Virus record (IMG/VR): IMGVR_UViG_3300037466_000868
Direction: 5' to 3' (one strand)
Length of the DNA stretch: 64,000 bases
Source of the DNA: an uncultured virus (IMG/VR IMGVR_UViG_3300037466_000868)
Lineage: Duplodnaviria; Heunggongvirae; Uroviricota; Caudoviricetes
The position numbers were made by a program, and so were the translations under genes. The notes under the pieces were generated by a model that was not told the DNA's origin, did no database searches, and saw only the letters and a list, made by a program, of their open reading frames with translations. Below are positions 31,021 to 44,775 of this stretch, piece after piece (position 1 is the stretch's first letter; each line of letters opens with the position of its first letter).

Positions 31021-31395
31021 GTGGCCCGGCCGCGAATTCCACGCGCCAAAGCCGCGGTTGAGGCTAGAGACAAGATCAACGCTGGCCGCTTCAAGAACCG
31101 CAAGGAGCCGCGGTCGCCGGGCGAACTTGGCGATCCACCCGAATGGATGGGCGGCGAGCAGCGGGCGGCCTGGAGGATTTTTCAGCGTGAAATTCCATGG
31201 CTGACGGAATCGCACCGCGGACTTGTTGAGATTGCCACGATTATCAGGGCGCGCCTTGCGTCCGGTGAGGAAGTCGGAGTTCAAGCGCTCAATCTGCTGC
31301 GTCAATGCCTTGGCCAGATGGGCGCGACCCCATCCGATGCAAGTAAGGTGACGTTGCCAGAAGATGACGAGGAAGACGACGACATCCTCGATTGA
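31021..31395 (+). CDS. Terminase small subunit
   Basis: PP.W; G.TP..ASKV; position before terL. Confidence 0.85.
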   Translation: MARPRIPRAKAAVEARDKINAGRFKNRKEPRSPGELGDPPEWMGGEQRAAWRIFQREIPWLTESHRGLVEIATIIRARLASGEEVGVQALNLLRQCLGQMGATPSDASKVTLPEDDEEDDDILD

Positions 31396-33253
31396 GGCGG
31401 CAACGCCAGCGCTAGACCGCGTGTCGGCATATGCGCGTGCTGTTCTTGACGGCAAGATTGTAGCGGGACCGCATGTCAGAAATTCTTGCCGTAGGCATTT
31501 CGACGATTTGGCCCGCGGTGCCGAGCGTGGATTATATTGGGACGATGCTGCGGCACTTCGCGTATTTCGGTTTTTCGAAGAGAAGCTGAAACTTAGTGAA
31601 GGGCAGTTTGAGGGCGTTCCGTTCAAACTGCATCCGTCGCAAGCGTTTAAGGCCGGCAGCCTATTCGGGTGGAAGCGTGCAGACGGCACCCGCCGCTTCC
31701 GCCGTGCTTACGTTGAGGAAGGCAAGGGAAACGGTAAGTCTCCTTTCGCTGGTGGCGTCGGTCTTTATGGCCTGATAGCTGACAACGAGGCTGGCGCACA
31801 GATCTACGCGGCCGGCGCGCGCAAGGAGCAGGCCGGCATTCTATTCGCAGACGCCGTGAAAATGATGCGTAAGTCGCCCGATTTAGCGCGGCGCATCAAA
31901 CCCAGCGGCGGTCTCGGCAAGGAATACAACCTTGCGCACTTAAAGTCGCAATCCTTCTTCCGGCCGATTTCGAAAGAGGCCGGTAAGACTGGCTCGGGGC
32001 CGCGGCCCAGCATGGCGTTGTGCGATGAGGTGCATGAGCACCCAGACCGCACCACGATGGAGATGCTGGAGGCTGGCTTTAAGTTTCGACGCCAGCCGTT
32101 GTTGTTCATGATTACGAATTCCGGGTCGGATCGTAATTCGGTTTGCTGGGAAGAGCATCAGCACGCGGTGAGAGTTGCCGCCGGCACAATGACGCCGGAT
32201 GAAGACTTCACTTATGTTGGCGAACCTATCGACGACGCGACCTTTTCGTATGTGTGCGCGCTCGATAAAGACGACGATCCGATGGAGGATCCGTCGTGCT
32301 GGCCCAAGGCAAACCCGCTGCTTGGCACCATTCTGACGAATGAGTATCTGGCCGGCGAAGTAAAGAAGGCCAAAGACATCCCCGGCAAGTTGAACGGGGT
32401 GCTTCGATTAAATTTCTGCGTCTGGACCGATGCAGACAAGGCGTGGATGCCTCGCGCCACTGTCGAAAAGGTCATGGCGGATTTCGCGCCGGAAGAACAT
32501 GAGGGCAAGCCGGCCTTCCTCGGTGTTGACCTTTCCGGATCGAAGGATATTACCGCCGTTGCGGTCGTTGTGCCGACCGGCGTTAAGACGATGTTTCGCG
32601 AAGATGGGACGTCGACCGACTTGCCGACGTTTGATGCGTGGGTCGAGGCATGGACACCGGGCGATACGCTTGCAGAACGCGCCAAGGCCGATAACGCCCC
32701 TTACGAGGTTTGGGTGCGCGATGGTTGGTTAAACGCTCCGCCGGGGCCGCGCATTCGGTACGATTTCGTTGCGGCACGCGTTGCCGAGCTTGATCAGCTA
32801 TTGGACATTCAGGCGGTTGCTTATGACCGCTACGTCTACAGCAAGTTCAAGGAAGAATGCGAAGCAATCGGCCTTGAACTAAACCACGTTGCGCATCCGC
32901 AGGGCGGTAAGGTTAGGGCGCGGCCCGAGCCCGAGAAGGTCGAGGCGGCTAAGGCCGCCGGGCTTGAGCCACCGCAAGGGCTATGGATGCCAGGCTCTGT
33001 TATCGAGCTTGAGAATGCGATTATCGATGGTCGCATTCGGATGCGTAGCAGCCCGGTTCTGATGACGGCCCTTATGGGCGCCACGTTCGACCGCGATCCG
33101 AACGACAACCGATGGTTCGTGAAGCAAAAGGCGAGCGTGCGAATTGACGCTGCCGTGGCCTTGGCTATGGCGATAGGCGCTGCGGTGGATACGCCGGTTG
33201 ATACCGGCGACGTCCAAGACTTTGTCGACAACATGGTTGTCGTTACCTGGTAG
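31364..33253 (+). CDS. Terminase large subunit
   Basis: GKGNGKS; DEVHEH; GVDLS...D; RIDAAVA. Confidence 0.97.
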   Translation: MTRKTTTSSIEAATPALDRVSAYARAVLDGKIVAGPHVRNSCRRHFDDLARGAERGLYWDDAAALRVFRFFEEKLKLSEGQFEGVPFKLHPSQAFKAGSLFGWKRADGTRRFRRAYVEEGKGNGKSPFAGGVGLYGLIADNEAGAQIYAAGARKEQAGILFADAVKMMRKSPDLARRIKPSGGLGKEYNLAHLKSQSFFRPISKEAGKTGSGPRPSMALCDEVHEHPDRTTMEMLEAGFKFRRQPLLFMITNSGSDRNSVCWEEHQHAVRVAAGTMTPDEDFTYVGEPIDDATFSYVCALDKDDDPMEDPSCWPKANPLLGTILTNEYLAGEVKKAKDIPGKLNGVLRLNFCVWTDADKAWMPRATVEKVMADFAPEEHEGKPAFLGVDLSGSKDITAVAVVVPTGVKTMFREDGTSTDLPTFDAWVEAWTPGDTLAERAKADNAPYEVWVRDGWLNAPPGPRIRYDFVAARVAELDQLLDIQAVAYDRYVYSKFKEECEAIGLELNHVAHPQGGKVRARPEPEKVEAAKAAGLEPPQGLWMPGSVIELENAIIDGRIRMRSSPVLMTALMGATFDRDPNDNRWFVKQKASVRIDAAVALAMAIGAAVDTPVDTGDVQDFVDNMVVVTW

Positions 33254-33259
33254 TATAAT

Positions 33260-34549
33260 TTGGCCTGGTGGAATAGCTGGATCGGCAAGCCGATCGACTT
33301 GAATGCGTCTAGCGTGCCGTTTTGGCGCGGCTTCTTCGGCGCGTCCACCACGTCCGGCGAGGTTGTTACGGTTGAAAAGGCGCTTGGCCTTGATGCGTTT
33401 TGGGCGTGCGCGAGCCTGATTCAGGATGCAATTGGCACGTTGCCGTGCGTTTTGTATGATGCGAGCGGCGTCAAGCCTGCCACTGGCGATGATCTTTACG
33501 GATTGCTGCACGACTTGCCGAATGCGGATGATACCGCGTCGGAATTCTGGTCGATGGTGGCGCTTTGTCTTTGCACGGACGGTAATTTCTTCGCTGAAAA
33601 GAAGTATGTCGGCGGCAAACTGGTTGCGCTGAATCCGCTGCATCCGCAAGCCGTTGAAATCAAGCGCGACGATCGCAATAGCCGCTATTACGAGTACAAT
33701 GAGACTTATGGCGTCGGCAAGAAGTCCGGTATTCGTAAGATCAGCGAAGACAAGATGTTCCACGTCCGCGGAAAGCGGATGCCCGAATGCGATCGGGGTA
33801 TTTCTCCTGTAGGAGTCCTGCGCAATATTCTCGGCTCGGCCATGGCCGGCGAGAAGGCGGGCGCCAAGGTCTACAAGGGCGGCCTGATTTCAACGACGCT
33901 TTTGACGTCGGATCAGGTCTTAAAGGCAGATCAGCGCACGCAATTAGCGGCGTCCCTCAAGGGCGTTGTTGGCGCGGAAAATGCCGGTGGTGTTGCCGTC
34001 CTTGAGGCAGGCCTGACGCCGCATACCATTTCGGTAAAGCCTGTTGACGCGCAGATGTTGGAGTCGCGTCAGTACGCGGTGGAGCAGATTTGCCGGATAT
34101 TCGGTGTCCCGCCCGTCATGATTGGCCACGCGGCCAACGGCACGACGACTTGGGGCAGCGGCATCGAGCAGTTGATCCTGCAATTCAGCAAGACGTGCTT
34201 GCGTCCGATGTTGCAGCGTATCGAAGATGCGATTTATCGGGACATTTTCACGCCAGAACAACGCAAGAAGTTCTCAGTGAAGTTCAATATGGACGCGTTC
34301 CTCGAAGGGGACAGCGTCGCTCGCGCGAATTTTCTCACGAAGATGTCCGATAGCGGAATTTACACCAAGGACGAGGCGCGCGCATACGAGAATAAGCCGC
34401 CGATTCCGGGCGGTGCGCACGCGATCGTCAACGGGACGATGCAACGGCTGGACAAGATAGGCGGAGCGCCGCCCGTGCAGCCACAGGCCGCGCCACAGCC
34501 AGCGAATACCAACGAGCCGGTGCCTGCAGCGCCGAAGAAAGCCGCGTAG
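33260..34549 (+). CDS. HK97-family portal protein
   Basis: GN.F; G.SP; ICRIFGVPP; DEARAYEN.PP. Confidence 0.96.
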   Translation: MAWWNSWIGKPIDLNASSVPFWRGFFGASTTSGEVVTVEKALGLDAFWACASLIQDAIGTLPCVLYDASGVKPATGDDLYGLLHDLPNADDTASEFWSMVALCLCTDGNFFAEKKYVGGKLVALNPLHPQAVEIKRDDRNSRYYEYNETYGVGKKSGIRKISEDKMFHVRGKRMPECDRGISPVGVLRNILGSAMAGEKAGAKVYKGGLISTTLLTSDQVLKADQRTQLAASLKGVVGAENAGGVAVLEAGLTPHTISVKPVDAQMLESRQYAVEQICRIFGVPPVMIGHAANGTTTWGSGIEQLILQFSKTCLRPMLQRIEDAIYRDIFTPEQRKKFSVKFNMDAFLEGDSVARANFLTKMSDSGIYTKDEARAYENKPPIPGGAHAIVNGTMQRLDKIGGAPPVQPQAAPQPANTNEPVPAAPKKAA

Positions 34550-34592: not shown

Positions 34593-35708
34593 ATGAAATT
34601 TGAGCACATCCTTTCGGCGTTTGTAGCCGAACCGTGGGCAATTCAGCGTGAAAAGCTGGGTCTGCTTGCTGATTTGCTGGTTGCGCGCGCCGAAGGCGAA
34701 AAGTTGGTGTCGTCTGAGATGGCTGCGGCCATTTCCGATGCGCGAGCGGCAGAAGTCGCGGATGTGGATGGCAAGGTCGCTGTAATCCCTGTTTACGGCG
34801 TTCTTTCGCAGAAAATGGACCTTATGTCCGCTATTTCTGGCGGCACTTCTTATGCTGGCATCCGCGGTAGTTTGCATCGGGCGCTCTCGAATGAGGATGT
34901 GAAGGCCGTTGTGCTCGATATCGACAGTCCCGGCGGCACTGTGCCCGGCACTGATGAGTTGGCGACGGAAATTCGAGCCATCCGCGGCGGTGAAAAGCCC
35001 ATTATTGCGCAGGTGAATAGCCTTGCTGCCAGTGCGGCTTATTGGATTGCCTCTGCGGCCGACGAAATCGTAGTGACGCCATCGGGGCGAGCTGGATCGA
35101 TCGGTGTTTATACCGCGCACGATGACGTTTCCGCGGCGCTAGAGAAGCGCGGCATCAAGCGAACGTACATTTCGGCCGGCAAGCATAAGGTTGAGGGTAA
35201 CGAAACCGAGCCCTTGAGCAAAGACACGCTTGCCCATGTGCAGGATGGCGTAAACCGCAGCTATCAGCGGTTTGTCGCCGCTGTTGCGGAAGGCCGCGGC
35301 ACCACAGCCGGCAAAGTCGAGGACGGTTACGGTCAGGGCCGCGTGTATTACGCCGAGTCCTTGATGGACCGCGGCATGGTCGACCGCATTGCCACGCTTG
35401 AGCAGACGCTAGAGCGCTTTGGCGCGGAGACGCAGCCTGCCTATGTGCGGCGCGTGAAGGCAGAAAACCAGGCGCGTGAGGCTGCTGCGCAATCGTTGTG
35501 CGCGAAGATCCGCGCTGGCGAAAAGATTTCAGTTCGTGAGTGGGAGAATGGCCTCAAGGGACTTGCTGGCCTTTCCAACTCAGAGGCAGAGCGGGCCGCT
35601 CGGCTCTACCTCAAAGATGGTCAGGGGGAACCTGACGGCGATGCGGATGCTGCGGCGTTGGCCGCGATTGACCGCGTTTTGGCTGATGCCAAGGCGTTCC
35701 GCGCCTAA
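34593..35708 (+). CDS. S49-family prohead protease
   Basis: IDSPGG; AASAAYWIAS; GSIGV. Confidence 0.93.
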   Translation: MKFEHILSAFVAEPWAIQREKLGLLADLLVARAEGEKLVSSEMAAAISDARAAEVADVDGKVAVIPVYGVLSQKMDLMSAISGGTSYAGIRGSLHRALSNEDVKAVVLDIDSPGGTVPGTDELATEIRAIRGGEKPIIAQVNSLAASAAYWIASAADEIVVTPSGRAGSIGVYTAHDDVSAALEKRGIKRTYISAGKHKVEGNETEPLSKDTLAHVQDGVNRSYQRFVAAVAEGRGTTAGKVEDGYGQGRVYYAESLMDRGMVDRIATLEQTLERFGAETQPAYVRRVKAENQAREAAAQSLCAKIRAGEKISVREWENGLKGLAGLSNSEAERAARLYLKDGQGEPDGDADAAALAAIDRVLADAKAFRA

Positions 35709-35742: not shown

Positions 35743-36966
35743 ATGTCTGAATCCAATGTACTTGCCGACAAGATCGGTGAACTTGGTACTTCGCTGGCCT
35801 CCATCAAGGAGCAGGTCGGCAATCTTGGTGCGGATTTCACCGAAAAGCTGAAGGCAAACGGCGAAGTTTCCGCCGACCTGAAGGAAAAGACCGACAAGGC
35901 CCTGTCTGAGCTTGGCGAAGTCGTGACTCGCGTTGGTGAGCTTGAAAAGCGTGCCGCGCGAGAGAAGGACGTTGCGGACCACGGCGCGGCCATGGACCTT
36001 GGCGACCACCTGGTTGCGTCGGAGCAGTTCAAGAGCACCGATATGTCGGGCAGTTGGCGCGGCGCGATCCGCGTTGGCGTTGAGCGTGCCGATATTACTT
36101 CGGCCAATGGCACCGTTGGCGCTGGCCGCTCGGCTGGTACGTCGCTGGTTCCTGGCGCTCGCGTTCCGGGCATCGTTGCGCCGCCGAATCGCCAGTTCAC
36201 CATTCGCGACCTGCTTGCTCCGGGCCAGACTTCGGCCAGTTCGGTTGAGTACGTCAAGGAAACCGGGTTTACCAACAACGCTCGGCCGGTGACGGAAACC
36301 ACGACCAAGCCGAAATCGGACATCACCTTTAACATGGTGACGACTCCGGTTCGCACGCTGGCCCACATCTTCAAGGCGTCCCGCCAGATCCTTGACGACG
36401 CGCCCGGCATTGCCTCGTACATCAATGCGCGTGGCACCTATGGCCTGAAGTACAAGGAAGAAGTCCAGCTTCTGACCGGCGACGGCACCAACCAGAACCT
36501 GAACGGCCTCGTGCCGCAGGCTACTGCGTTCGCGCCGGAGTTCAATGCGACTGACGAGCAGGCCATTGATCGCGTTCGTCTCGCCCTTCTGCAGGTGGTT
36601 CTTGCGGAGTACCCGGCGAGCGGCATCGTTCTCAATCCGATCGATTGGGCGCGCATCGAGCTGACCAAGGATGGCGACAAGCGCTACATCGTTGGTAATG
36701 CGCTGTCGCCGATTGGCCCGACCCTTTGGAATCTGCCGGTTGTACAGACCCAGGCGATGACCGCGGGCGAGTTCCTTGTCGGTGCGTTCAACCTGGGTGC
36801 GCAGATTTTCGACCGCATGGGCGTTGAGGTTCTTCTGTCGACCGAAAACTCGGATGACTTCGAGAAGAACATGGCGACCATCCGCGTTGAGGAGCGCCTT
36901 GCCTTGGCGGTGTATCGGCCCGAAGCGTTCGTTACGGGCGACATCGATACCCTGACCAGCGCCTGA
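35743..36966 (+). CDS. HK97-fold major capsid protein
   Basis: N-terminal coiled delta domain; L.GDG; NP.DW; F.KN...IR.EERL...V.RPEAF. Confidence 0.97.
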   Translation: MSESNVLADKIGELGTSLASIKEQVGNLGADFTEKLKANGEVSADLKEKTDKALSELGEVVTRVGELEKRAAREKDVADHGAAMDLGDHLVASEQFKSTDMSGSWRGAIRVGVERADITSANGTVGAGRSAGTSLVPGARVPGIVAPPNRQFTIRDLLAPGQTSASSVEYVKETGFTNNARPVTETTTKPKSDITFNMVTTPVRTLAHIFKASRQILDDAPGIASYINARGTYGLKYKEEVQLLTGDGTNQNLNGLVPQATAFAPEFNATDEQAIDRVRLALLQVVLAEYPASGIVLNPIDWARIELTKDGDKRYIVGNALSPIGPTLWNLPVVQTQAMTAGEFLVGAFNLGAQIFDRMGVEVLLSTENSDDFEKNMATIRVEERLALAVYRPEAFVTGDIDTLTSA

Positions 36967-37000: not shown

Positions 37001-37016
37001 ACCACTATGGTGATTG

Positions 37017-37412
37017 ATGCTAATTCGCGCACTTAAGACGACGACCGGCCGCCCAAAAGGCACTGTTCACGAAGTGGACGACTCTACCGGTAAAGAACTT
37101 GTGGCCATGGGCTACGCTGTCGAGGAGTTGCCGCTTGCTAAACAGGAGGCCGCGCCTGTCGCCGCGAATGACAACCGCCCTTTAGCTGCGGGCGACGACC
37201 AGACTGGTTCCCCGACTGGCGCGGATGCACCGCAGTCATCGTCGCAGGCGGACCAAGTGCTGCTACAGCAGGAGTTGAGCGGGCCAGAGGCCGCGCAAGA
37301 GTCCTCTCCATCAACAACGGATATAAACTCGCCACATGGGCAGATGTCCTCTATGCCTGCGACCACGACTGGTGGAAAGCGCAAGCGGGGGCGCCCGAGT
37401 TCAAAGGGCTAA
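37017..37412 (+). CDS. Small post-capsid protein (zero-frame product) with low-complexity tail
   Basis: G...EV....G..LV..GYA domain, then an S/T/Q-rich tail. Confidence 0.75.
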   Translation: MLIRALKTTTGRPKGTVHEVDDSTGKELVAMGYAVEELPLAKQEAAPVAANDNRPLAAGDDQTGSPTGADAPQSSSQADQVLLQQELSGPEAAQESSPSTTDINSPHGQMSSMPATTTGGKRKRGRPSSKG

Positions 37413-37828
37413 AGGTTAGCCAAGACGGTTATGCGCCCGATCCGGCATGGGGGCTGCGGCTTGTAACCTTAGTACGAAATTGCGACCGCCTACTATTCAA
37501 CCGCTTTAGCGAACTTGGATGGGGCGGAAACGGCGGATTTCACGCGCTTAATCTTGCCCTTCAGTTTGGCGCACGGAGCGTTGTTCTGGTTGGTTACGAC
37601 ATGCGGGTTGATTTGGGTGTGCATTGGCACGGCAAGCATCCCGCAGGCATGAATAATCCCAGCGACGTCAATACCCGCCGATGGCGGCAAGTTTTGGATG
37701 CGCAAGCCCCGCTGTTACGCGATATGGGCGTCTCTGTTGTAAACGCCTCGCCGACTAGCGCGCTTGAGGCTTATCCCAAAATGACGCTGGAGGCGGCGTT
37801 GCAAGGTGAAGTGAATGCCGCTGCTTGA
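37172..37828 (+). CDS. Maf/DUF115 (sialyltransferase-fold)-like glycosyltransferase domain, probably expressed by -1 frameshift from the 37017 ORF
   Basis: Stop-free frame with AVIVAGGPS, ADVLYACD..WW, GGNGGFHALNLA, VVLVGYDM, HWHG, VVNAS; no ATG/GTG/TTG before 37601. Confidence 0.75.
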   Translation, partial: QPPFSCGRRPDWFPDWRGCTAVIVAGGPSAATAGVERARGRARVLSINNGYKLATWADVLYACDHDWWKAQAGAPEFKGLKVSQDGYAPDPAWGLRLVTLVRNCDRLLFNRFSELGWGGNGGFHALNLALQFGARSVVLVGYDMRVDLGVHWHGKHPAGMNNPSDVNTRRWRQVLDAQAPLLRDMGVSVVNASPTSALEAYPKMTLEAALQGEVNAAA

Positions 37829-38159
37829 TACCAGCCTTGTAAAGAAACATCTACGCGTCGACAGCGCCGACGAGGATGACGTGATTGCGGCGTATCAGGC
37901 CGCAGCCGAGGCCAGTGTTTGCGAATATATCGATCGCGACGTGTATGTGTCGGGCGATAGTCCGGTGTCGACGGACGAATATGCCATTGAGATCGAGCCG
38001 CCCATTACTGCGGCAATCCTGTTGCTGATTGGCGACCTCTACGCTAACCGAGAGCCTGATTACAAACTGGGCGGTGATGCCGTGTTACCCCGCGCTGTGC
38101 GTGCCTTGCTGGCTCCGTATCGGGTTTGGCGTGTCGTGAGCGAGGGCGCTTGTGACTGA
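37815..38159 (+). CDS. Head-tail connector (HK97 gp6-like)
   Basis: VKKHLRVD..DED; AILLLIG.LYANRE; LL.PYR. Confidence 0.93.
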   Translation: MPLLDTSLVKKHLRVDSADEDDVIAAYQAAAEASVCEYIDRDVYVSGDSPVSTDEYAIEIEPPITAAILLLIGDLYANREPDYKLGGDAVLPRAVRALLAPYRVWRVVSEGACD

Positions 38160-39105
38160 ACCCAAGCGCGAATTGCTTTTGCAGGGTATGCACGGGTTAG
38201 GAGACAATCTCCATCAACGTGCCGTCATCCTGCAATTAATGCAGCGCTACGACGTCACGCTGGAGTCGTCGTGGGTTGCGCCGTATTACGATTTAATCGC
38301 GGACGGCCTTAAGGTCGTTCACAAACCGACCACGCTGCGGACCCAGGCCAAGAACGCCAAGCGTGAGGCCGGTTTATTCCATAAGCGTGCCCCGCAGAAC
38401 ACGCGCAAGCGTAAGGTTTGGTACGCGCCGCGAGAAGTAAGAGCCTGCGGCGGCGTTCTGGCCGCCATGTGCCGCAACTGTGATGTGTCTTACGATAAGG
38501 CCGACTTCCGGCTTCCTGTAAAGCCTGAGTGGATTGCGGCGGCGCGTGAGGCGGTGCCAACAGACAAGCCCATCTTGGTCTACCGGCCTTTGGTTGAACG
38601 GACCGAATGGAACGGATGCGCGGCACGAAATCCAGACGTAGACGCATACGACGTCCTATTCCAGAGCATCCGCGATCGCTTTTATGTTGTGTCTATTGCC
38701 GATCTAGTGCCGAAAGTCGAGTGGATTACCAGTCACGCTGTTTTGGCGGATAAGGCATTTCATGCTGGCGAACTTCCTTTTGAGACTTTGGCTGGTCTCT
38801 TTCATATTGCGGCGCTCGCGTTCACCGCGCCAGGCTTCGCGGTAATCCTTGCGCAGGCTGTTGGCTGCCCGGTTGCCGCAGTATTCGGCTCATATGAGGC
38901 CAGTTACAGTTTTAGCGGCGGGGCGCGTTATTCGCCGTATCTGGGCATAGATCCGATTACGCCATGCGACGATTTCAAGCACGATAACACCGAGGACAAG
39001 ACGATTGACGTCCCGCAAGCCAAATCCCGCCTTGCTTTATTCGCCGGCGACGCGATCGAGCGTCACCATCAACGCGCCGAAGGCAAACCTGCAAGGGCTG
39101 CCTGA
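38152..39105 (+). CDS. GT-B fold glycosyltransferase (GT9-like)
   Basis: GLGD N-terminal motif; LA.AVG.P..A.FG C-terminal motif. Confidence 0.7.
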   Translation: MTEPKRELLLQGMHGLGDNLHQRAVILQLMQRYDVTLESSWVAPYYDLIADGLKVVHKPTTLRTQAKNAKREAGLFHKRAPQNTRKRKVWYAPREVRACGGVLAAMCRNCDVSYDKADFRLPVKPEWIAAAREAVPTDKPILVYRPLVERTEWNGCAARNPDVDAYDVLFQSIRDRFYVVSIADLVPKVEWITSHAVLADKAFHAGELPFETLAGLFHIAALAFTAPGFAVILAQAVGCPVAAVFGSYEASYSFSGGARYSPYLGIDPITPCDDFKHDNTEDKTIDVPQAKSRLALFAGDAIERHHQRAEGKPARAA

Positions 39106-39619
39106 GCGTTATATCCATCCCGGCGAATTAGATGTTCTGGCGCACCTGATGCAAGGCGCGCGCGTTGTGGCGGAATTCGGCTGCAACAATGGTCGCACGG
39201 CAGCGGCGATGCTGCGAAATGTGCCGACGATTGAGCGATATGTCGGCGTCGACGTCAAGCCGGGTTATTCGTTCGCGTGCAAGGTGCAGGCGCGAGAGAT
39301 GCCTGCGGTGCCGGGCGATCTGGCGTTGGACGACACGCGGTTTGAACTTGTGCTGCGTAAGCGCGGCACGTTCGATTTAACAGCTGCGGATTTGCCAACC
39401 TGCGACGCGGTGTTTATCGATGGCGACCATTCTGAGGCGGCTGTTCTCTGGGATAGGGGGCTTGCTTTGTCTGTTGTTCGCCCTGGCGGGCTTATTGTTT
39501 ATCACGACGATAATGGCCTCGATTGCGTTGATGTTAGCCTGGTTCTGGATGTTCTCGCAGACGGTGGAGCGGATATCCGGCATGTTGCTGGGACGTGGTT
39601 GGCGTTTGAGCGGGTGTAG
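39005..39619 (+). CDS. Class I SAM-dependent methyltransferase (Methyltransf_24-like)
   Basis: EFGCNNGRT; GVD; FIDGDH; PGG.I.YHD. Confidence 0.88.
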   Translation: MTSRKPNPALLYSPATRSSVTINAPKANLQGLPERYIHPGELDVLAHLMQGARVVAEFGCNNGRTAAAMLRNVPTIERYVGVDVKPGYSFACKVQAREMPAVPGDLALDDTRFELVLRKRGTFDLTAADLPTCDAVFIDGDHSEAAVLWDRGLALSVVRPGGLIVYHDDNGLDCVDVSLVLDVLADGGADIRHVAGTWLAFERV

Positions 39620-39625
39620 TCCCAA

Positions 39626-40156
39626 GTGAAACGCATCCTTGGCCCCGACAAAGAACAAGTCATTATAGACCAGATCAAGAGCGTCTTAGGCGTTCGCGGT
39701 GCTGTTGCTGAGTGCGGCGTTTATTGTGGTTCCACACTTCACGCGATGGCGTTAGCCGCGCCGGACAAGGCGGTTTACGGCTTCGATACGTTCGAAGGCT
39801 TGCCCGCAGAGATGCACTCGGACAACGAGCCGCACAAGGTTGGCGACTTCGCGGATACCAGCATCGACGCAGTTGCTGCCGACATGCCGCCTAACGTGAC
39901 GTTGATGCAGGGCGTGTTCCCGGCCTCTGCCGCCGCGCTAGACAACACCAAATTCGCCTTCGTTCATCTGGATTTTGACTTCTACGAATCGACGCGGGCC
40001 GCCCTTGAGTGGCTTTTGCCGCGAATGTCGGACGGTGGCAAGATCGTATTTGACGACTACGAGTGGGACCATTGCCCCGGCGTTAAGCGCGCCATTGATG
40101 AGTTCGGATTGTCGGTAAAGCGTACTGTTCCGTTTCAGGTGGTGTGGACGAAATGA
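39626..40156 (+). CDS. TylF/MycF-family O-methyltransferase
   Basis: ECGVY.G; FDTFEGLP; G.F; HLD.D.YES; GG.I.FDDY. Confidence 0.9.
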   Translation: MKRILGPDKEQVIIDQIKSVLGVRGAVAECGVYCGSTLHAMALAAPDKAVYGFDTFEGLPAEMHSDNEPHKVGDFADTSIDAVAADMPPNVTLMQGVFPASAAALDNTKFAFVHLDFDFYESTRAALEWLLPRMSDGGKIVFDDYEWDHCPGVKRAIDEFGLSVKRTVPFQVVWTK

Positions 40157-40491
40157 AAGCCGGCACCCTCAACAAACGCGCCCGGTTTGAGTCGCAAGTC
40201 GCGGTCAGCGACGGCGCGGGCGGCTCCACTTTATCGTGGCAGGAATACGTCACGGTATGGGCGCAACTGTCGCCAGAGCGCGCGCGAGAGAAAATCCAAC
40301 AGGGCCGCATCGCTGATAATCAGGCTGGAGTGTTGCGCGTGCGGTCCAGCACAGCAACTCGACTGATCGATGCAACGTATCGCGTTGTGGTGGATGGGGT
40401 CACGTACAACGTGCGCGGCGCGGCGAATCCAGATCAACGAAACGATATGGTTGAGTTCGTCGTAGAGACGGACGGGACGCAGGCGGGCTGA
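40153..40491 (+). CDS. Head closure (stopper) protein
   Basis: AG.L..R; DG.GG; TVWA. Confidence 0.9.
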   Translation: MKAGTLNKRARFESQVAVSDGAGGSTLSWQEYVTVWAQLSPERAREKIQQGRIADNQAGVLRVRSSTATRLIDATYRVVVDGVTYNVRGAANPDQRNDMVEFVVETDGTQAG

Positions 40492-40991
40492 TGGCCATAC
40501 GCGCGCGGTTCACGCCGCAGAGCCGGGCCGCGGTGACAAAGCGTCTACGCGAGTTGGTTCCTAACGCTGAAGCGCAGATTGCCAGGGCGCAGGAAGAGTC
40601 CGCAAAAGAACTAGCTGAGGCGATTAAGGCCCGCGCGCCGCGTAAGAGCGGACGCTACGCGGAGAGTATCGAGGCTGGGAAGCTGGCTGGTCGCAATGAC
40701 GGTCGCAAGCCTATCGGGATGCAGGAGACCAAAGACCCGAACGCATGGGGCATCTTCGCTAGTTATTTGTGGAGATTTATCGAGTTCGGCACTCGCCCGC
40801 ACACCATCAAGGCGAAGCGCGTTTCGGATTTGGTGTTTTACGCCAACGGGCAAAAGATCGTAACGCCGCAGGTGTCGCACCCCGGCACGACTAAACAGCC
40901 ACACATCTTTCCAACGTATCGCCAGTACAAGAAGCGTATCCGACGCCGCATGTTGCGCGCCATTCGGAACGCTATCAACGGCAAAAAGTAA
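40491..40991 (+). CDS. HK97 gp10-like tail completion protein
   Basis: AP..SG; F.EFGT; QP...P. Confidence 0.88.
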   Translation: MAIRARFTPQSRAAVTKRLRELVPNAEAQIARAQEESAKELAEAIKARAPRKSGRYAESIEAGKLAGRNDGRKPIGMQETKDPNAWGIFASYLWRFIEFGTRPHTIKAKRVSDLVFYANGQKIVTPQVSHPGTTKQPHIFPTYRQYKKRIRRRMLRAIRNAINGKK

Positions 40992-41413: not shown

Positions 41414-41847
41414 TGGCGCAGCAAGACGCAAAAGAACTAGTTATCAAGCGTGGTGACGGGGCCTCCCCGGAAGTGTTTTCCTTCGTTTGCGGCATTCGCA
41501 CTCGCACGTTCTCCATGTCGAATGCGTCGATTGACACGACCGTTCCGAATTGTGAAGATCCGTCGCTTCCGATTGTAGCAACCGCGCGGCCTGGCCGACA
41601 GACCATCACGTTCTCTGGCGACGGCCTGTTCGATAGCAACGCGGCGGGCAAGGCTATTGCCGACGACGCGCGCGAGCAGAACATCGAAACGAACTATCAG
41701 GTGATCGTGCCTGGTTACGGAACTTTCGAAGGGCCGTTCTTCATTTCCGACTTTCAATGGAATGGAGATATGGAAGACCCGCTTGCCTTCTCGGCGACGT
41801 GGACTCCGCTTGATGCTTCTCAACTGACCTTCACGCCGGCAGCGTAA
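41413..41847 (+). CDS. Major tail tube protein
   Basis: GDG..PE.F..VCG; SGDG; P..G...GPF. Confidence 0.88.
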   Translation: MAQQDAKELVIKRGDGASPEVFSFVCGIRTRTFSMSNASIDTTVPNCEDPSLPIVATARPGRQTITFSGDGLFDSNAAGKAIADDAREQNIETNYQVIVPGYGTFEGPFFISDFQWNGDMEDPLAFSATWTPLDASQLTFTPAA

Positions 41848-42221
41848 TGTCGTTGTCATATAATGCAGAGCGGGGCGAAGTCCCGCTTTCGGTCGGCGAT
41901 GTCGAGTTGGTCATCGCCGCTGAGATGAGGGGACTTGCCGCGCTGTCAACGCGGCTCAGCAATCCTGGCTTTTCCGATATGTACGCAAGGCTTGCGAGCG
42001 CCGAAATCAACGCCACGATGGCTGCGGTTGAGTGCCTGACCGTGAAGGGTGATGGCGCAAAAGCTGCTACCGACATGACGCTGGCCGATCTTCCACGCTG
42101 CACTGAGGCCATTGCCAAGGCAATCGCGCATCACGCGGAGAAGGCGTCAAAAAACGAGGAAGCCGCCAAGACGGAGACGACCGGATCCCTTGGCGGCGCT
42201 GGCTCGGGTTCGCAACCGTAA
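41847..42221 (+). CDS. Tail assembly chaperone (G)
   Basis: N..RGEV; between tail tube and tape measure. Confidence 0.82.
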   Translation: MSLSYNAERGEVPLSVGDVELVIAAEMRGLAALSTRLSNPGFSDMYARLASAEINATMAAVECLTVKGDGAKAATDMTLADLPRCTEAIAKAIAHHAEKASKNEEAAKTETTGSLGGAGSGSQP

Positions 42222-42373
42222 GGCTACGTTGGTCTCCGGTTGAGTTCTGGTCGTCGACCATGACGGAATTTACCGCAGCGACAGACTTTTGGCTTGAAGC
42301 CAACGGTGTGAAGACTGGCGGAAACGCCCCGAGCCGTGAAAGGCTGGACAAACTCAAGCGGATGTATGGTTAG
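42149..42373 (+). CDS. Tail assembly chaperone -1 frame extension (GT)
   Basis: A AAA AAC slippery site 42149-42155; -1 frame has L.WSP.EFW..T..E. Confidence 0.82.
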   Translation, partial: KKRGSRQDGDDRIPWRRWLGFATVRLRWSPVEFWSSTMTEFTAATDFWLEANGVKTGGNAPSRERLDKLKRMYG

Positions 42374-42705: not shown

Positions 42706-44775
42706 ATGGCCGATAACGAACAGCTAGTATTATCCATCTCGGCCGACACCCGAGCGATGCAGCGTCAGCTTGACAAGCTGGTGCAGTCGCTTGGCGACGT
42801 AGATACTAGCGCGGGACAGGCATTTGTAAAAGCCCCTCCGAAGATTGATGCGGTGACGAAATCGCTTGGGGCCGCCAAGTTTCAGACCGCAAACCTTGCC
42901 GCGCAGTTTCAGGATATCGCGGTTTCCTTGCAGGGCGGTCAGTCGCCTTTCACGGTGGCGCTTCAGCAGGGTACTCAGATCAGCCAGGTTCTAGGGCAAG
43001 CTGGTGCCGGTGGCGTTGTTAAACTGCTTGGCACCGCGTTTGCCTCTTTAGTCTCGCCAGTATCGCTGGCCACGATTGGTATTATTGCGCTTGGCGGTGC
43101 GGCCGTTTCTTACGGTCTGAAGGCTATCGGAGCCGTTGATGATCTCGACGAGCGCATCAAAAAGCATACTGAGTTAGTTAAGTCGCTAAAGGAAGTTTAT
43201 GGCGACGCGGCCAAGGGTATTGACACGTCGACGAAAGAGAGCGCGGAAGTTCTTCGCGCCCTCTTAAGTATCTCGACTGACAAACTCCAGAAAGACTTTA
43301 AGAAACTTGCACTGTCTGCCGCAGCCCCCGGCCAGCAGATGGCGCAGTTCGTTGACGACTTCGGCCGCATTATCGAGACGGGCGCAGACAAGTTCGCGCC
43401 ATTTCGTAAAGCAATTGATGATTTTAACGCTTCGGTTCGATCTGGAAAACCAGACGTACAGGCGTTTCGCGATTCGATTTCGGAAACTGTTAACAGCAGT
43501 CCCGATCAAAAGGTCCGCGCGCTCGGCGGGGAGTTGCTTGACGCCAGCAAGAATGCTGGTGAGTTGGCAAACTCTCTGCGTGCCGTTGGCGACGCTGGTA
43601 AGGGCCTAGACGCTGCGGCGCTGGCTGCCGCCGCAATCAATAAGAATTTCGCCGACGCGCTAAAGACGCTCGGCGGAACTGTTTCGAAGAATCTCGACGA
43701 CAGAGAGAAGATCGAGCAAAACTATAAGAAGGTGATGCAATCCGCCAATAGCGACGACAAACAAATGATCGCTATGGCGGAGCGCGACAATCAGCTCGCA
43801 ATCCTGTCGTACAATGAGCGCAAGAAGGCGGCGGAGCAGGCCGGTAAAGCCGCCGAGTCTGCAGCGAAGCGGTTCCAAGGACAGCTTGACTCAGTATCCA
43901 AGCGGAATGCGCAATTGTTCGGCGCGCAGAGCGGCATTGGGCAGGGCGTAGAACAGCTCGTTAAACTTGAGACGCAGTACCGGCTCACTGAGGCGGCCCA
44001 ACAGGCATTCGGCAAGGTTACGCCAGAGATTGCCGCTAAGATTGATGCAGTGGCTGCTGCGGCAGGACGTGCGGCGGATGCTCTCGCTAAGGCGAAGTTG
44101 CAATCCGATATCGGATTCGAGCGTTCGCAGATTGGCTTGTCCCCGGCAGAGCAGAGCGCCAACTCTCGTCTGCGCTCTGTTTTCGGCGACGACGTCAATT
44201 CCGCCCAAGCGCAGTTCTACAAGCAACAGTTGCTCGTCAACGACGCGTTGCGCCAATACAGCGACATAGGCAAAGACGCCACCAAGGGGTTCATTTCCGA
44301 CATTCTGGCGGGCAAGTCCGCGCTGGAAAGCCTGGGTGGCGCGCTGGAAAAGATCGGCAACAAGCTGATCGACATGGCCGTTGATGGGCTGTGGGGCAAG
44401 GCGTTCGGTGGAAGCGGTGGGTTGCTGTCGCTGCTTGGTGGCGGTGGGAGCGGGGCGTCCAGCCTCATGCAGGTTGGCAATCAATTTTTCCCGAAGTTTG
44501 CCAACGGCACGAACTTTGCGCCGGGCGGACTTGCATTGGTCGGTGAACGTGGCCCCGAGTTGGTGAATCTGCCGCGGGGGGCGTCTGTCACGCCTAACAA
44601 CGAACTTATGGGCATGGGTGGTGTGAACGCTCCCGTTTCCATTTCCATTGACGCACGTGGCGCAGACGCGGCGGGGCTGGCGCGGTTGCAGGCCGAGATC
44701 GCACGCCTGCGCGCGGAGTTGCCGTCGACGATCACGGCGACGGTCAAAAAGAAGCAGTACGGGGGCGTGTTGTAA
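42706..44775 (+). CDS. Tape measure protein
   Basis: NLAAQFQDI...GQSP..V..QQG.QI; Ala-rich; FA.G...VGERGPE. Confidence 0.95.
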   Translation: MADNEQLVLSISADTRAMQRQLDKLVQSLGDVDTSAGQAFVKAPPKIDAVTKSLGAAKFQTANLAAQFQDIAVSLQGGQSPFTVALQQGTQISQVLGQAGAGGVVKLLGTAFASLVSPVSLATIGIIALGGAAVSYGLKAIGAVDDLDERIKKHTELVKSLKEVYGDAAKGIDTSTKESAEVLRALLSISTDKLQKDFKKLALSAAAPGQQMAQFVDDFGRIIETGADKFAPFRKAIDDFNASVRSGKPDVQAFRDSISETVNSSPDQKVRALGGELLDASKNAGELANSLRAVGDAGKGLDAAALAAAAINKNFADALKTLGGTVSKNLDDREKIEQNYKKVMQSANSDDKQMIAMAERDNQLAILSYNERKKAAEQAGKAAESAAKRFQGQLDSVSKRNAQLFGAQSGIGQGVEQLVKLETQYRLTEAAQQAFGKVTPEIAAKIDAVAAAAGRAADALAKAKLQSDIGFERSQIGLSPAEQSANSRLRSVFGDDVNSAQAQFYKQQLLVNDALRQYSDIGKDATKGFISDILAGKSALESLGGALEKIGNKLIDMAVDGLWGKAFGGSGGLLSLLGGGGSGASSLMQVGNQFFPKFANGTNFAPGGLALVGERGPELVNLPRGASVTPNNELMGMGGVNAPVSISIDARGADAAGLARLQAEIARLRAELPSTITATVKKKQYGGVL

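Follow-up and report, generated by a model that had tools for sequence, protein, structure and literature searches.

The stretch of DNA studied here, 64 000 nucleotides of the uncultured virus IMGVR_UViG_3300037466_000868 (Caudoviricetes; called the window in what follows), carries directly after its major capsid protein (MCP) gene a region that is open in two overlapping frames. We estimate at roughly four in five the probability that this post-capsid gene encodes a small protein and, through a conserved programmed -1 frameshift, a fusion of that protein to a transferase which would be targeted to the capsid. In the scheme that we favour, translation from ATG 37017 would yield the small post-capsid protein; in a fraction of passes, tRNA-Pro on CCU and tRNA-Leu on UUA would slip one base back onto CCC UUU (37178-37184), and the -1 frame would then be read to 37828 to give a 270-amino-acid fusion in which a short linker joins the N-terminal small domain to a CstII/Maf/MptE-like transferase that would have no other route of expression. 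The small domain would dock on the MCP and bring the enzyme to capsid protein, procapsids or heads, and the enzyme, perhaps together with a phrog_6804 protein and two methyltransferases, would modify (probably glycosylate) a virion protein. Support for the frameshift comes from a layout conserved among relatives, from heptamers in the proper phase, from a switch of the frame under selection, and from natural in-frame fusions. That the shift is ribosomal, and that it takes place at the heptamer, is what we infer from comparing sequences. The region is organized as follows:

37017-37828, + strand: two-frame region, small open reading frame (ORF) and transferase.
37017-37412, + strand: zero-frame ORF (Z), 131 amino acids; small domain at about residues 1-45, linker ...KQEAAPVAANDNRPL, and an unconstrained tail that overlaps the T frame.
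37169-37171, + strand: TGA closing the -1 frame two codons 5′ of the heptamer; 5′ limit for the shift.
37178-37184, + strand: slippery heptamer C CCT TTA (X XXY YYZ), phased in the Z frame; proposed site of the -1 shift.
37184-37828, + strand: transferase coding part (T) in the -1 frame, 214 codons plus stop; frame open from 37172.

The Z ORF, which begins at ATG 37017 (TTG at 37014), reads MLIRALKTTTGRPKGTVHEVDDSTGKELVAMGYAVEELPLAKQEAAPVAANDNRPL..., then ...AANDNRPL, and ends at 37412, its stop sitting, by our own reading of the sequence, within the conserved GLK codons of the transferase. The T frame translates as QPPFSCGRRPDWFPDWRGCTAVIVAGGPS...HWHG.... An earlier note, made from the letters of this DNA, had described the -1 frame as open from 37172 to 37828, preceded by the in-frame TGA at 37169-37171 and devoid of ATG, GTG or TTG before 37601, and had placed CCCTTTA just after the AANDN codons in the C CCT TTA phase; all of this was confirmed, the first start-like triplet of the T frame being at 37601 with none from 37172 to 37600. 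Residues 10-29 of T (PDWFPDW...GGPS) correspond to a conserved N-terminus, and it is there that most homologues begin, as M(K/R)PDWFPDW. Tandem slippage would give a product of 270 amino acids (56 + 214 codons) with the junction ...NDNRPL/SCGRRPDW. We estimate that a heptamer in phase would occur by chance in about 3-4% of cases in the 27 nucleotides where the shift is permissible (9 positions × 1/256). The codons at the site are ordinary ones for this phage: in 13 of its genes, CCT accounts for 46 of 256 proline codons and TTA for 29 of 422 leucine codons. Transcriptional slippage was ruled out, no homopolymer run at the site being longer than 3.

To place this arrangement among its relatives, 173 loci were fetched (80 each from IMG/VR and metagenomes, 11 from genomes and 2 from phage records), which makes 174 with the window, out of a family with 378 transferase homologues at E ≤ 0.001. 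The T frame was placed by tblastn and the small domain by an iterated hidden Markov model (HMM) run over the three upstream frames. Asking simply which ORF bridges the two parts did not discriminate (Z only in 30, both in 28, neither in 14, Y only in 1), because off-frames are long in G+C-rich DNA, and the HMM frame assignment was therefore used instead. By this assignment, 69 of the 174 loci have the small domain upstream, T in the -1 frame relative to it and no start within 30 codons; 2 more have the same -1 layout with a start-like codon (71 in total), 1 has the small domain fused in frame with T, and none has T in the +1 frame. In 76 loci the HMM detects no small domain and T has its own start, in 18 neither a small domain nor a start is found, and in 8 the upstream sequence is too short to classify. 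Removal of duplicates left 142 distinct loci: 59 with the -1 layout, 65 with an own start, 16 with neither small domain nor start detected, 1 fused and 1 at a contig edge. Inspection by eye shows in most of the 16 a small ORF that has diverged but stands in the -1 relation as well. A detected small domain never precedes a separately initiated transferase in this set: it is either fused to it or, as the sequences would have it, linked to it by frameshifting.

Protein identity falls to about 45% within the 59 distinct loci in which the -1 relation recurs. Among the 120 homologues listed, most begin M(K/R)PDWFPDW, i.e. with a start of their own, and in a few a small domain of the same family is naturally fused in frame (proteins P0004, P0007, P0012, P0014 and P0026, and locus L064). 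The closest relatives, P0018, P0054 and P0068 (84-88% identity), were called as truncated pieces of 119-131 amino acids, as would be expected of a gene caller that meets no start. The -1 layout occupies several deep clades in a tree of 139 transferases obtained by quick maximum likelihood; the layouts require 14 changes, at least three of them forced by supported branches, and none of 500 shuffles was as low. It follows that the layout has been maintained over long periods, with repeated switches to own-start forms. One locus without a small domain, L032 (around 1440-1545), has a 14-codon zero-frame ORF, MTLAEVAKPRAADP..., followed by T in the -1 frame at GAC CCT ACG, and the protein P0069 has an N-terminus like that ORF but in a single frame; L032 would represent either frameshifting with no docking domain involved or a damaged copy. 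A second transferase paralogue lies a few genes downstream in some other loci (L013, 4494-5078; L095, 2738-3316; L118, 2154-2759), and the record of Tetraselmis viridis virus S20 labels such a paralogue as a second ‘sialyltransferase’.

When X XXY YYZ motifs lying no more than 14 codons from the PDWFPDW anchor were counted by phase, the result was 38:2:0 for the 59 -1-layout loci, 37 of which carry an in-phase heptamer, and 4:2:5 for the 65 own-start loci. CCCTTT phased on the T frame occurs in 27/59 of the former and 0/65 of the latter, and T-phased CCCT in 45/59 and 7/65, respectively. The seventh base of the heptamer is variable (G 10, C 9, T 5, A 4), and the other in-phase heptamers are AAACCCT (6 loci), GGGCCCT/G (3 loci) and CCCAAAG (D3). 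In three loci (L013, L106 and L110) the T-frame stop abuts CCC TTT, and the shift is therefore pinned to these two codons there. The relative L001, 85% identical to the window, has flanks changed by substitutions and by a 3-nucleotide indel, yet it keeps CCCTTT and the frame relation. Thus both the two-frame layout and the heptamers are conserved among relatives, and the proposal of the earlier note, that a programmed -1 frameshift fuses a domain of about 55 amino acids to a start-less transferase, is strongly supported by comparative evidence.

A shift of another kind at the same place, be it slippage in the P site alone on C CCU, a +2 shift or slippage displaced by a few codons, instead of tandem slippage on the whole heptamer, seems unlikely to us. 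It would accommodate the fact that T-phased CCCT is found in more of the -1-layout loci than CCCTTT, the others having CCCTTC, CCCTAC or CCCTCN, or CCU in the A site (the AAACCCT and GGGCCCT/G loci). The window itself has a canonical heptamer, however, and the variants, which sequence cannot separate, would all yield the same fusion bar one junction residue.

The comparison of the window with six close relatives also tells which frame is under constraint. Differences at codon positions 1/2/3 number 74/60/173 for the small domain, read in the Z frame 5′ of the site, 81/75/140 for the overlap when read in T, and 193/97/418 for the T frame further downstream. Third positions of Z are first positions of T, and in the overlap they are not enriched for differences. 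Purifying selection therefore passes from the Z to the T frame at the site, and the Z tail (77 codons) is unconstrained. This bears on a rival explanation, namely that a mutation of one nucleotide, a decaying pseudogene or an assembly error broke an ancestral fused or own-start gene and put an end to synthesis of the transferase. Relatives do include in-frame fusions and own-start forms, two loci (L005 and L010) look broken within the gene, and our check used contigs rather than raw reads. Yet the -1 relation is found in 59 distinct loci and the +1 relation never, T is intact over 214 codons and keeps its third-position bias, the change of frame always falls at a slippery motif just 5′ of PDWFPDW, and isolated, viable phages carry the layout. 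Nor was any indel seen in contigs from four runs, one contig spanning 36900-37226 without any difference; a co-occurring variant carries CCCTTTT. One of the relatives, L014, is 100% identical to the window across the T frame and may not be independent. As far as contig-level data allow, the locus is neither an assembly error nor a pseudogene, and we regard this explanation as extremely improbable.

The layout is also found in cultured phages. Tetraselmis viridis virus S20 has it with C CCT TTG and with four T-frame stops abutting the heptamer; its record annotates a truncated ‘sialyltransferase’. In D3, where the region is recorded as orf6.5 and a truncated orf7, and in four other D3-like phages, an in-phase C CCA AAG stands 13 codons ahead of GPS. 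These D3-like Pseudomonas phages (L012 and L176-L179) have the stretch annotated in four different ways: as a 152-amino-acid orf7 in D3, as an overlapping GTG-started gene of 198 amino acids in PMG1, as a 134-amino-acid fragment in phPA-G and U7, and not at all in phi1. Two own-start homologues, PAJU2 ORF010 (L174) and one in Klebsiella phage Eowyn (H85), are labelled ‘structural protein’, and these record annotations hint that the enzyme can be a virion component. The pmgO/pmgP pair of phage P1, considered as a possible split gene, was rejected, PmgO being a full-length own-start homologue.

Several observations weigh against the frameshift or against capsid docking. As many as 22 of the 59 -1-layout loci have no perfect heptamer. 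The motif is reduced in most of them to C CCT with TCN, ACN or CNN behind it, and is T CCT TTT in three (L111-113); these loci point to weaker, perhaps P-site-only slippage, or to another site nearby. The residues PF before PDWFPDW also occur in some own-start homologues (P0072 and P0090), so that conservation of CCC TTY could be partly a coding constraint. In the classical cases of -1 frameshifting, the zero frame generally stops soon after the site; here it continues for 77 codons past the heptamer, and for 17-83 codons in relatives. In the D3-like phages, a T-frame GTG/TTG lies 8 codons 5′ of the heptamer and is used as the start in PMG1. The proposed docking, discussed below, comes from a structural model.

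The D3-like case raises the question of independent initiation: the transferase would be made from a non-canonical or overlooked start in the overlap, and the small ORF would be a separate gene. The GTG/TTG of these phages is preceded, 3 nucleotides upstream, by a weak GAGG, and most homologues elsewhere have their own start. For the D3-like phages themselves, initiation at the GTG/TTG is possible. In D3, however, these triplets arise from zero-frame CTN followed by TG and, by our own reading, three out of four synonymous choices give a start-like codon. In the window, the nine T-frame codons between the TGA and PDWFPDW (CAA CCG CCC TTT AGC TGC GGG CGA CGA) include no ATG, GTG, TTG, CTG, ATT, ATC or ATA, and 57 of the 59 distinct -1-layout loci have no ATG, GTG or TTG within 30 codons. 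Independent initiation would, moreover, leave the phase-specific heptamers unexplained, and we judge it very unlikely.

The search for stimulatory elements also counts among the unfavourable points. The earlier note had mentioned GC-rich pairing potential downstream of the heptamer. The segment 37185-37290 does fold, at -39.2 kcal/mol, but this is matched or bettered by 140 of 200 shuffled sequences (z = 0.55), and the folding z-scores of -1-layout and own-start loci are alike (-0.71 vs -0.49, p = 0.25). Predicted downstream hairpins differ between relatives, in which no conserved stimulatory RNA structure was found. Of 45 loci, 24 have a Shine-Dalgarno (SD)-like GGAGG or AGGAG, for the most part 20-24 nucleotides upstream, and 21 have none. 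In the window an AGGAGG-like motif lies at 37140-37147 within the codons of the conserved linker residues K-Q-E-A-A, and in many loci such a motif is found about 20-30 nucleotides 5′ of the site; this is too distant for a classical dnaX-type SD stimulator, the spacing of which is 10-14 nucleotides. Two further candidates were discarded. A 1-2-1′-2′ pairing spotted by eye (CTGCGG/CCGCAG, GCGACGA/TCGTCGC) is not kept in the closest relatives. The PDWFPDW codons (CCAGACTGGTTCCCCGACTGG, 37199-37219) form a small imperfect hairpin, since CCAG and CTGG are reverse complements; we do not count it as a stimulator, its spacing from the heptamer varying from 2 to 14 nucleotides among close relatives.

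As regards the two parts of the putative fusion, the transferase is the better characterized. The T product (P0001) matches phrog_4603, labelled alpha-2,3-sialyltransferase, with an E value of 2.9e-45. The PF01973 (MptE-like/DUF115) profile stays below its gathering cut-off (E 0.0089, 16.3 vs 34.6 bits), several of the transferase homologues have a precomputed PF01973 match, and NCBIfam gave nothing useful for this domain. An AlphaFold model of T, built from an alignment of 26 sequences, has a predicted local distance difference test (pLDDT) score of 93.8, and a Foldseek search with it returned 13 PDB chains at E ≤ 0.001 (TMq 0.43-0.59), led by CstII, Maf, Cst-I, SteA and the MptE HPPK; the top matches include CstII 1ro7 (E 3.3e-5, TMq 0.49), Maf 5mu5 (TMq 0.59) and MptE HPPK 8sd5 (E 1e-3). 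Judging from this model, T shares the CstII/Maf/MptE transferase fold, in agreement with the Cst/Maf-type (DUF115) assignment first made from GxGPS and LxGxD-type motifs. These columns are conserved among the homologues, with G27, P28, L139, G141, D143, W152, H153 and H156 invariant or nearly so. The earlier note links such motifs to transferases that use CMP-activated ulosonic acids, which would be the putative type of donor here. Thus T resembles CstII and Cst-I (GT42), Maf and MptE in its predicted fold and in the conserved GGPS and LVGYD...HWHG columns; it differs from them in that identity is only 11-16% and in being much smaller than Maf (632 amino acids).

The N-terminal 54 residues of Z match phrog_2616 (E 2.7e-5). 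A match to DUF7302 (PF23976) is below threshold for the window (E 0.0087, 16.9 vs 24.9 bits); in relatives, 18 of 45 match it at E ≤ 1, the best at 2.3e-5. DUF7302 and DUF7210, Pfam families of small phage proteins, are among the closest known systems, with matches that stay sub-threshold in the window. The domain is modelled as beta-beta-alpha-beta with a pLDDT of 71.7, and its structural neighbours are the GINS B-domain (Z score 5.5), the bL9 N-domain (5.3) and the C-domain of lambda gpFI (2lsm, 4.1; root-mean-square deviation 0.8 over 37 residues), scores of 4.1-5.5 being in the range where the tool warns of a merely common arrangement. When the small domain (residues 1-45) was modelled in complex with MCP residues 125-407, the score was 0.67, as against 0.00 for the best of three controls; the three runs shared 100% of their contacts, and the pLDDT of the partner was at least 82. 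The predicted interface involves MCP residues at about 241-258, 340, 343 and 398 (117-134, 216, 219 and 274 in the numbering of the modelled chain). Of 157 solved complexes, 116 attained the 0.67 mark, as did 2 of 215 mismatched pairs; these counts hold only roughly here since the alignments were self-made (45 rows for the small domain, 38 for the MCP). At the level of this model, the notion of a capsid-associated N-terminal domain is supported, and the small domain may be a capsid-docking module.

The docking model is consistent with the position of the gene, which is that of lambda FI. In lambda, FI directly follows the major capsid gene E and lies between E and FII, and a 1997 paper by Murialdo and Tzamtzis reportedly indicates, by its title, a genetic connection of FI with the coat protein. 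The small domain is like gpFI in this genome position after the MCP gene and in a model that resembles the gpFI C-terminal domain. It is unlike it in that gpFI bears the domain at its C-terminus and without any enzyme fusion, and in that the bL9 and GINS domains score higher than gpFI. In PMC10721106, the passages retrieved deal with gpFII and not with gpFI.

The region lies within an HK97-like head module, which is organized as follows:

31364-33253, + strand: large terminase (HK97-like head module).
33260-34549, + strand: portal (HK97-like head module).
34593-35708, + strand: S49 protease (HK97-like head module).
35743-36966, + strand: HK97-type MCP gene, directly 5′ of the small ORF (Pfam Phage_capsid, E 1e-60).
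37815-38159, + strand: gp6-like head-tail connector gene, overlapping the transferase stop (Pfam Phage_connect_1, E 4.2e-8).
38152-40156, + strand: accessory block within the head module (phrog_6804 protein and both methyltransferases).
38152-39105, + strand: 317-amino-acid phrog_6804 protein (PHROG match).
39005-39619 and 39626-40156, + strand: two SAM (S-adenosylmethionine) methyltransferases (Methyltransf_24; TylF, E 2.6e-19).
40144-40491, + strand: head completion protein.
40491-40991, + strand: HK97 gp10-like protein.

A homologous MCP lies directly 5′ in 49 distinct related loci: 41 with the -1 layout, 6 without a start, 1 fused and 1 own-start; the -1 layout is thus associated with the post-capsid position. 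The three genes of the accessory block stand between the connector and head-completion genes. The 317-amino-acid phrog_6804 protein has no Pfam or NCBIfam match, and the hits of the two methyltransferases include a weak one to ‘putative sugar O-methyltransferase’. According to record notes, D3 orf12 and orf13 are similar to PAJU2 gp11 and gp12, of the same accessory block. The combination of a phrog_6804 protein with TylF-type methyltransferases suggests a glycan-modification pathway, possibly the same one as that of the transferase. The DNA of the window was present in rhizosphere and soil metagenome runs.

Further downstream, in the region 41847-42372, a 124-amino-acid ORF precedes the tape-measure gene (42706-44775). 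It contains A AAA AAC in phase at 42149, and its -1 frame is open to about 42370, an arrangement that resembles the canonical frameshift of the G/GT tail assembly chaperones. The phage would then use two programmed -1 shifts, one at the head site and one at the tail G/GT-type site.

Programmed -1 frameshifting is well known in phage structural operons, as with G/GT and T7 10A/10B. In lambda-like tail assembly chaperones, the G/GT shift reportedly described by Levin et al. in 1993 and by Xu, Hendrix and Duda in 2004 has much in common with the present case: a conserved -1 shift at an X XXY YYZ motif in a structural operon, short and C-extended products which share the N-terminal domain, and an extension without its own start. 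The head-module site differs in lying between capsid and connector genes, in an extension which is a 214-residue enzyme fold and not a chaperone segment, in a zero frame that continues, and in the coexistence of stand-alone and in-frame-fused forms of the extension in relatives. The frameshift in T7 gene 10A/10B, said to have been analysed by Condron et al. in 1991, and the Ig-like domains that Fraser et al. reportedly found in 2006 to be added by frameshifting, are likewise cases where a -1 shift in a head gene adds a C-terminal module, sub-stoichiometric in the known systems and proposedly so here. In those systems the capsid protein itself is read in the zero frame and gains a short tail or a binding domain, whereas here a putative transferase is added to a small accessory domain. 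Lastly, the mycobacteriophage virion glycosylation reportedly described by Freeman et al. in 2023 is similar in that phage-encoded transferases, with genes inside the structural module or close to it, would modify proteins of the capsid and tail; it is different in that it involves other enzyme families and no frameshift, the glycan being only proposed for the present family. A full-text literature search found no publication on a head-module frameshift, and a term look-up found no mention of it in the 2025 D3 capsid paper (PMC12749128) or in the first 300,000 characters of the frameshifting review by Atkins et al. 2016 (PMC5009743).

A wider hypothesis, which we put forward tentatively and hold to be possible though doubtful, is that in a large family of HK97-like temperate phages of alpha- and gammaproteobacteria, with the long-studied D3 among them, a second, unannotated -1 frameshift tethers a CstII/Maf-like transferase to a capsid-docking domain. 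The enzyme would reach assembling heads at a ratio set by slippage and would build, with the phrog_6804 protein and the sugar-type O-methyltransferases, a methylated capsid glycan; it may even stay in the virion, since own-start homologues (those of PAJU2 and Eowyn) are annotated as structural proteins. If the proposed frameshift is real, it would be a second widespread recoding event in phage structural operons beside the tail G/GT shift, and one that expresses an enzyme rather than a chaperone. It would explain the truncated, overlapping or missing transferase gene in the records of D3-like phages and of many prophages. Gene callers miss the N-terminus of the enzyme including the GGPS motif, so that annotation pipelines would need a rule for such cases. 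The switches seen on the tree from one form to another (own-start, frameshifted, fused) would provide a natural system in which to ask when frameshifting is preferred over fusion, and the combination of a docking domain, an enzyme and a slippage-set stoichiometry would be a route to capsid modification in phages of Gram-negative bacteria.

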